Under the pieces are notes generated by a model. That model did not search any database. It was not told the DNA's origin and worked only from the letters and a program-made list of their open reading frames with translations. A stretch of 38,307 nt of DNA, from IMG/VR virus record IMGVR_UViG_2657245439_000017. One strand, given 5' to 3'. Below, piece after piece: positions 36,073 to 36,291 of the stretch (position 1 is its first letter; each line of letters starts with the position of its first letter). This DNA is from a virus (lineage: Duplodnaviria; Heunggongvirae; Uroviricota; Caudoviricetes). The position numbers and the translations under genes were made by a program.

Positions 36073-36291
36073 TTGTGTTTGGTTGATTTTGGCCTGCGGT
36101 TTAACCATAAAGGTCGACATTATTTTAAAGCCGCAAACGGCGAGGATATTGCCCTCTCACTTTCCATCGGTGCCGCCATGTTTAATGGTCATCCTGACTA
36201 TGAGCGCCTCATTCAAATAGCCGATGAAGCTCTGTATATCGCCAAAAGACGAGGTAGAAACCGTGTTGAACTCTGTAAAGCCAGTCTTTAG
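36073..36291 (+). pseudogene. dosC: 3' remnant of dosC-like diguanylate cyclase gene (C-terminal ~60 codons of GGDEF domain only)
   Basis: Encodes KAANGEDIALSLSIGAAMFNGHPDYERLIQIADEALYIAKRRGRNRVEL (GGDEF domain C-terminal strand-helix) but no GGDEF/GGEEF motif; in-frame stop at 36001 and phage DNA upstream. Confidence 0.7.

Follow-up and report, generated by a model that had tools for sequence, protein, structure and literature searches.

The dosC gene of Escherichia coli K-12, also called dgcO or yddV, belongs to the dosCP operon and encodes its globin-coupled diguanylate cyclase. A passage in PMC5635171, citing Povolotsky & Hengge 2016, describes DosC as frequently absent among E. coli strains, and a bioRxiv preprint (10.1101/2022.05.07.487787) reports that in all ST131 reference isolates DosC was turned into a 'novel short protein'. 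For the prophage analyzed here, the closest described relatives are Escherichia phage PhiKM (PQ738613) and the prophage lying between aroA and ycaL in JJ1886, with which it has gene order and right terminal sequence in common. Phage Mu duplicates 5 bp of its target on insertion, and Mu-type phages can generate deletions adjacent to themselves.

The window analyzed here, that is, the whole stretch of 38,307 nt, contains a remnant of dosC together with a transposable prophage. The deletion junctions of the remnant are the same as in the truncated dosC allele that E2348/69, ST131 and other E. coli carry. Compared with that allele elsewhere, the sequenced strain adds a frameshift in dosP and a prophage 239 bp upstream of the remnant open reading frame (ORF).

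Anatomy and distribution of the dosC remnant

The window was aligned at the nucleotide level (BLASTN) with the digH-yddY-dosC-dosP region of K-12 MG1655. Three collinear pieces were obtained, 35856-36080, 36081-36127 and 36127 onward, and therefore two stretches are absent relative to K-12. The features of this region are as follows.

35835-36046, plus strand: native digH-dosC intergenic DNA, intact downstream of the prophage, 96% identical to K-12 and with 0 mismatches to a prophage-free contig (L010, described below)
36047-36220, plus strand: chimeric 57-codon ORF, with the yddY Shine-Dalgarno sequence and start, then dosC in a frame other than dosC's own
36073-36291, plus strand: dosC pseudogene remnant ORF, TTG start, 72 codons, in the dosC frame
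36080..36081, plus strand: deletion 1 junction, 686 bp absent versus K-12
36081-36127, plus strand: 47-bp mid-dosC island, the last base of codon 214 and then codons A215-F229 (ADFGLWFNHKGRHYF)
36127..36128, plus strand: deletion 2 junction, in-frame 531 bp (codons 230-406) absent versus K-12

The first piece consists of the intergenic region between digH and dosC and, at its end, 34 nt from the start of yddY, a small gene of 13 codons. The island that follows was identical to K-12 dosC at 45 of its 47 nt, and 36127-36291 carries the last 54 dosC codons (K407-L460) and the stop, with dosP next. Lost in deletion 1 are the rest of yddY and, from dosC, the start codon and codons 1-214 with the globin sensor domain. 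Deletion 2, with 1 nt (A) of microhomology, covers the GGDEF motif at K-12 residues 374-378. The remnant was 96-99% identical to K-12 dosC in nucleotide sequence over codons 215-229 and 407-460 and keeps the position of that gene between digH/yddY and dosP, so both identity and synteny place it at the dosC locus. Unlike K-12 dosC, it is without codons 1-214 and 230-406, and hence has neither the start codon nor the globin sensor domain nor the GGDEF motif.

Profile searches agreed with the alignment. Residues 20-64 of the remnant matched the end of the Pfam GGDEF profile, positions 115-161 of 161 (E 5e-8), and residues 5-22 matched the DosC middle domain PF21118 (DosC_2nd) weakly, under the cut-off (E 3e-4). 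The remnant does not qualify as a functional diguanylate cyclase (DosC/DgcO) on the catalytic side, with no GG(D/E)EF motif and an incomplete GGDEF domain, nor on the sensor side, where the globin-coupled domain and the native start codon are gone. On alignment and domain content, the ORF at 36073-36291 is dosC-derived and is predicted to encode no active cyclase.

The first-pass annotation, made from the sequence without a reference, had arrived at much of this anatomy. Its assignment of the ORF to dosC is confirmed by the K-12 alignment and by the Pfam match to the GGDEF C-terminus, and the in-frame stop that it placed at 36001 is the TAA at 36001-36003. It was also right that only the final part of the GGDEF domain is kept and the motif lost, and that the cyclase is inactivated. 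Its more hesitant suggestion, that a FNHKGRHYF-like segment came from the middle of DosC and implied an internal deletion, is borne out by the island A215-F229 and the 531 bp missing after it. It had further held that the motif and everything upstream of it had been replaced by phage DNA. The motif is indeed gone, but phage sequence stops at 35834, and 35835-36080 is native host DNA that is contiguous with digH in prophage-free genomes.

The distribution of the two junctions was determined in complete E. coli genomes. A 117-nt query holding both was fully covered in 1050 of 5426 genomes, about a fifth, while the rest matched it only as separated pieces annotated as intact dosC. The deletion 1 junction on its own was found in 1051 of the 5426, which means that deletion 1 is nearly always accompanied by deletion 2 (1051 versus 1050 genomes). 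With a 78-nt query for deletion 2, BLAST merged two pieces of intact dosC, so that this count was confounded. Five aligned alleles had identical junction columns though several substitutions differed elsewhere, and the THO-003 allele had a further 1-nt deletion within the dosC frame, as would fit a pseudogene that is inherited and decays. RefSeq has this stretch, lying before dosP in E2348/69 and other genomes, as a pseudogene for an incomplete 'diguanylate cyclase domain-containing protein'. The junctions in the window are those of this common double-deletion allele. Judging from E2348/69 and ST131 and from the preprint, the lineage carrying the scar is probably phylogroup B2. The dosC scar is a widespread allele that is already known, and DosC loss is already in the literature.

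A second reading frame crosses the remnant. The chimeric ORF keeps the yddY Shine-Dalgarno sequence (AGGAG) and, from the ATG on, 34 nt (11 codons plus 1 nt) of the gene, which in K-12 is ATGGTGCAGTTAGTCGATCTCGCACGTTGCGTTTCATTTTGA, and deletion 1 fuses this start to out-of-frame dosC sequence. The locus might on this basis not be inert, yielding either a 57-aa protein from the yddY start or a 72-codon GGDEF-tail peptide with a regulatory role, for example in interaction with DosP. The translation signals of yddY are intact, YddY was detected in K-12 as a small protein of low abundance (10.1101/511675), the 57-codon frame was open in all five alleles compared, including THO-003 with its broken dosC frame, and the name 'novel short protein' was given to the product in the ST131 preprint (10.1101/2022.05.07.487787). 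However, the 57-aa sequence is dosC read out of frame, for which Pfam gave no family match, and five close alleles have almost no power to detect selection. As for the peptide in the dosC frame, the ORF has no ATG, no ribosome-binding site was seen immediately before the TTG start, and in THO-003 a frameshift breaks it. RefSeq, in addition, treats the locus as a pseudogene. We consider a functional product of either kind improbable, and it is equally doubtful that the 57-aa ORF is translated and kept by selection as a de novo small protein. If it were, roughly a fifth of complete E. coli genomes would carry a small protein born from a wrecked c-di-GMP cyclase.

The prophage and its relatives

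Most of the window is prophage, with the following features.

1-35834, no strand assigned: PhiKM-like transposable Mu-like prophage (genus Bcepmuvirus), 35,834 of its 36,485 bp within the window
About 823-24643, minus strand: prophage late genes, myovirus-type
About 27585-35673, plus strand: prophage early genes
28885-30654, plus strand: rve-domain transposase (Pfam rve)
30638-31831, plus strand: AAA+ protein, transposase partner (Pfam AAA_22)
32131-32661, plus strand: Gam (Pfam Phage_Mu_Gam)
34821-35312, plus strand: GemA (Pfam GemA)
35284-35673, plus strand: Mor (Pfam Mor)

The window begins just too late to take in the leftmost 650 bp of the prophage, which hold its left end and a Gin-like invertase gene. 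The gene set of a Mu-like phage was present, with a DDE/rve transposase and its AAA+ partner, a Mu-type Gam, GemA and Mor. The element also has TGAT...ATCA ends and 6-bp duplications, and its insertion sites vary by genome. Window positions 24000-36000 were 95.7% identical to PhiKM, which is classified in Bcepmuvirus, over 78% of their length. The same set of rve transposase, AAA+ protein, Gam, GemA and Mor was found in PhiKM and in the JJ1886 prophage, with 96-98% identity in the common segments, and the JJ1886 prophage likewise has a 6-bp target duplication, GAAGAA. The differences from these two lie in the variable region 25190-27355, in the tips of the tail fibres and in the insertion site, the last being expected of a transposable phage. 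Related copies were found at many chromosomal sites in other E. coli, next to cysE, barA, phoA, ycaL and others. Judged by gene content and nucleotide identity, the prophage is a near relative of PhiKM and belongs to a type of transposable phage that is already known.

With Mu it has in common a transposable, temperate way of life, TG...CA termini, homologues of Gam, GemA and Mor, near-random insertion sites and an invertible tail-fibre segment with a Gin-type invertase. Unlike in Mu, the early genes run opposite in direction to the late genes and the transposase matches the rve core only. The target duplication was 6 bp in the two clean cases here, against the 5 bp of Mu.

Several further observations were made on this phage group. 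The invertible tail-fibre segment comprises window positions 1-2870 and about 650 nt further left, and the Gin-type resolvase gene ends exactly one base before window position 1. Within the segment, an alternative gp53-like fibre tip (72-428, plus strand) and a tail-fibre assembly gene (432-851, plus strand) face the active assembly gene (823-1416, minus strand) and fibre gene (1416-2870, minus strand). In other copies the segment had the opposite orientation (L024) or held an IS66-family element (L019). The left end of the phage had at one point been guessed at window position 21 (TGGTTAAAG...) from TGAGATAA-like repeats. That candidate was rejected on comparison with JJ1886 and L3_E36, by which the window begins inside the phage, after the invertase gene.

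The variable region, 25190-27356, had no nucleotide match to PhiKM. It contains two ORFs, 25240-25830 (minus strand, 196 aa) and 25912-26898 (minus strand, 328 aa), for which neither Pfam nor PADLOC gave a match. Both are co-oriented with an HTH repressor-like gene (26895-27356, minus strand), and they may be cargo or immunity genes. The JJ1886 (ST131) copy is split by the IS66-family element ISEc23 (29863-32279) between the holin gene and the variable region, and it therefore measures 39.6 kb instead of 36.5 kb. One copy was found without a target duplication. This near-identical prophage (L3_E36/L005, NZ_LR882997.1, 4188-40840) interrupts a lambdoid prophage within its gpJ tail gene. It is flanked by ggtatg versus aatatt, which suggests that copies rearranged with each other or that the event was non-standard. 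Several more assemblies (L012, L018, L021-L024) showed this gpJ flank too.

The insertion site and the age of the dosC lesion

The junction between phage and host was then located by comparison of independent copies. The window, the JJ1886 prophage and PhiKM share ...CTGTCATTTATCTCAAGTCTAATCA and diverge at once after it, so the right end of the prophage is at window position 35834 (...TCTAATCA). Two features mark this junction.

35785-35834, no strand assigned: prophage right terminal sequence, ending ...TCTCAAGTCTAATCA and followed by unrelated DNA in JJ1886, L3_E36 and PhiKM
35835-35840, no strand assigned: right copy of the 6-bp target-site duplication AATACG, from comparison of the left junction and the empty site

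The reverse complement of the right end starts with TGAT, as the left end (TGATGCGCC...) does, and the GAGATAAATG/GCGATAAATG repeats have the same offset at both ends. The left junction was read from the source contig (GCA_001266385.1, JHTH01000005.1, 74.6 kb), which was identical to the window over 11,992 and 11,416 nt. It runs 4.1 kb further left, through the Gin-like invertase gene and the phage left end (TGATGCGCCGCGCGATAAATG...) to digH and gadC. With a slash for the boundary between host and phage, the left junction reads ...gcttaAATACG/TGATGCG and the right junction TAATCA/AATACGtcaaatt.

An empty site was available for comparison. The prophage-free contig L010, from another read set (ERR14002607), has a single AATACG at this place, with 0 mismatches to the flanks of the source contig in 3258 nt on the left and 0 in 2473 nt on the right. 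It already has both the dosC remnant and the frameshifted dosP. The insertion point lies between the stop codon of digH, 86 bp back, and the start codon of yddY, 212 bp ahead. The phage end is 239 bp upstream of the remnant ORF and 246 bp upstream of the deletion 1 junction. From the boundary at 35834/35835 the host side was 99.8% identical to E. coli E2348/69 over 2475 nt; in that strain it adjoins digH and is prophage-free. The intergenic DNA at 35835-36046 probably holds the dosCP promoter region; the promoter-like site in it, 35858-35886, was matched by consensus only.

The prophage is thus a simple insertion with a 6-bp target duplication, and nothing was lost from the host. The dosC lesion is older than the insertion, and the prophage did not cause it. 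The first-pass statement that the prophage interrupts dosC does not hold: the phage end abuts intergenic DNA, AATACG is duplicated around the element, and dosC was already truncated in L010, in E2348/69 and in the 1050 genomes with the scar. In the phage-host junction search of the 5426 complete E. coli genomes, those 1050 included, no prophage was found at the digH-dosC site.

That the prophage entered dosC and replaced the GGDEF motif and all upstream of it, possibly with an adjacent deletion induced by the phage, would account for its closeness to a truncated gene and for the in-frame stop upstream of the ORF, and Mu-type phages are able to make such deletions. But 246 bp of native intergenic and yddY DNA separate the phage end from the first deletion junction, the 6-bp duplication is perfect, and both flanks are 100% identical to those of an empty-site relative that is already scarred. 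The scar is found without the prophage in 1050 genomes, and to our knowledge transposable phages essentially never excise precisely. We regard this course of events as having next to no likelihood. It is just as implausible that the junction is an assembly artefact, a chimeric contig in which the end of a prophage was attached to the dos locus. The assembly is a draft, and a prophage at this position was found in none of the complete genomes. Yet a single contig of 74.6 kb spans both junctions, with canonical termini, digH and dosC' as the flanks and a 6-bp duplication of a sequence that is single at the empty site, which a misjoin would not create.

With an insertion that was clean and without loss, and a scar that is older, it is by chance that the prophage came to lie next to the dosC lesion. 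We are nearly certain of this history as a whole, in which the dosC scar was inherited and a PhiKM-like phage later inserted beside it, and no finding spoke against it. An ancestor of a large E. coli lineage would have lost 686 bp and 531 bp of yddY-dosC, in one complex event or in two, so that the 47-bp island from mid-gene now reads in frame into the last 54 dosC codons. The order of the two deletions, if they were separate, and the neutrality of the scar are matters of inference; the scar presumably passed on vertically and decayed neutrally. Much later, in the sequenced strain, the 36.5-kb phage would have integrated by DDE-transposase strand transfer into the digH-dosC' spacer, duplicating the 6 bp AATACG and removing nothing.

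dosP and the consequences for the strain

The early operon of the phage is directed toward dosP. Two features are relevant here.

35681-35724, plus strand: hairpin after mor (AAUCAGGCUGG...CCGGUCUGAUU), then UUUUC, from RNA folding
36316-38307, plus strand: dosP, frameshifted by a 1-nt deletion (G) after 38204 versus E2348/69

The frame of dosP shifts at about codon 631 of 799, and the stop reached, 38305-38307, is formed by the last bases of the window. Only profile positions 3-81 of 236 of the EAL domain (Pfam) are in frame, and with the domain incomplete the product does not qualify as a functional DosP phosphodiesterase. The frameshifted 663-aa product was also found on prophage-free contigs from several read sets, indicating that the frameshift is real and older than the insertion. 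It was present in 0 of the 5329 complete E. coli genomes matching this stretch.

The hairpin, a modest one, could be a weak candidate terminator of the phage early/middle transcript; in the stretch from mor to dosP, no terminator was called by a simple consensus scan. It sits within the conserved right end of the phage. Read-through from the phage into dosP, conceivable on induction, would be of little consequence, since it would reach only a dead dosC remnant and a frameshifted dosP. The native upstream region is kept, and the hairpin follows mor.

A prophage beside a broken gene invites a causal story, which is false here. The strain is without DosC through the history of its lineage and not through lysogeny, so curing the prophage would not restore oxygen-dependent c-di-GMP synthesis. 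Together, the dosC scar and the dosP frameshift make this strain a natural double mutant of dosC and dosP. For this group of E. coli transposable phages, the analysis of the locus gives two clean cases of a 6-bp target duplication.
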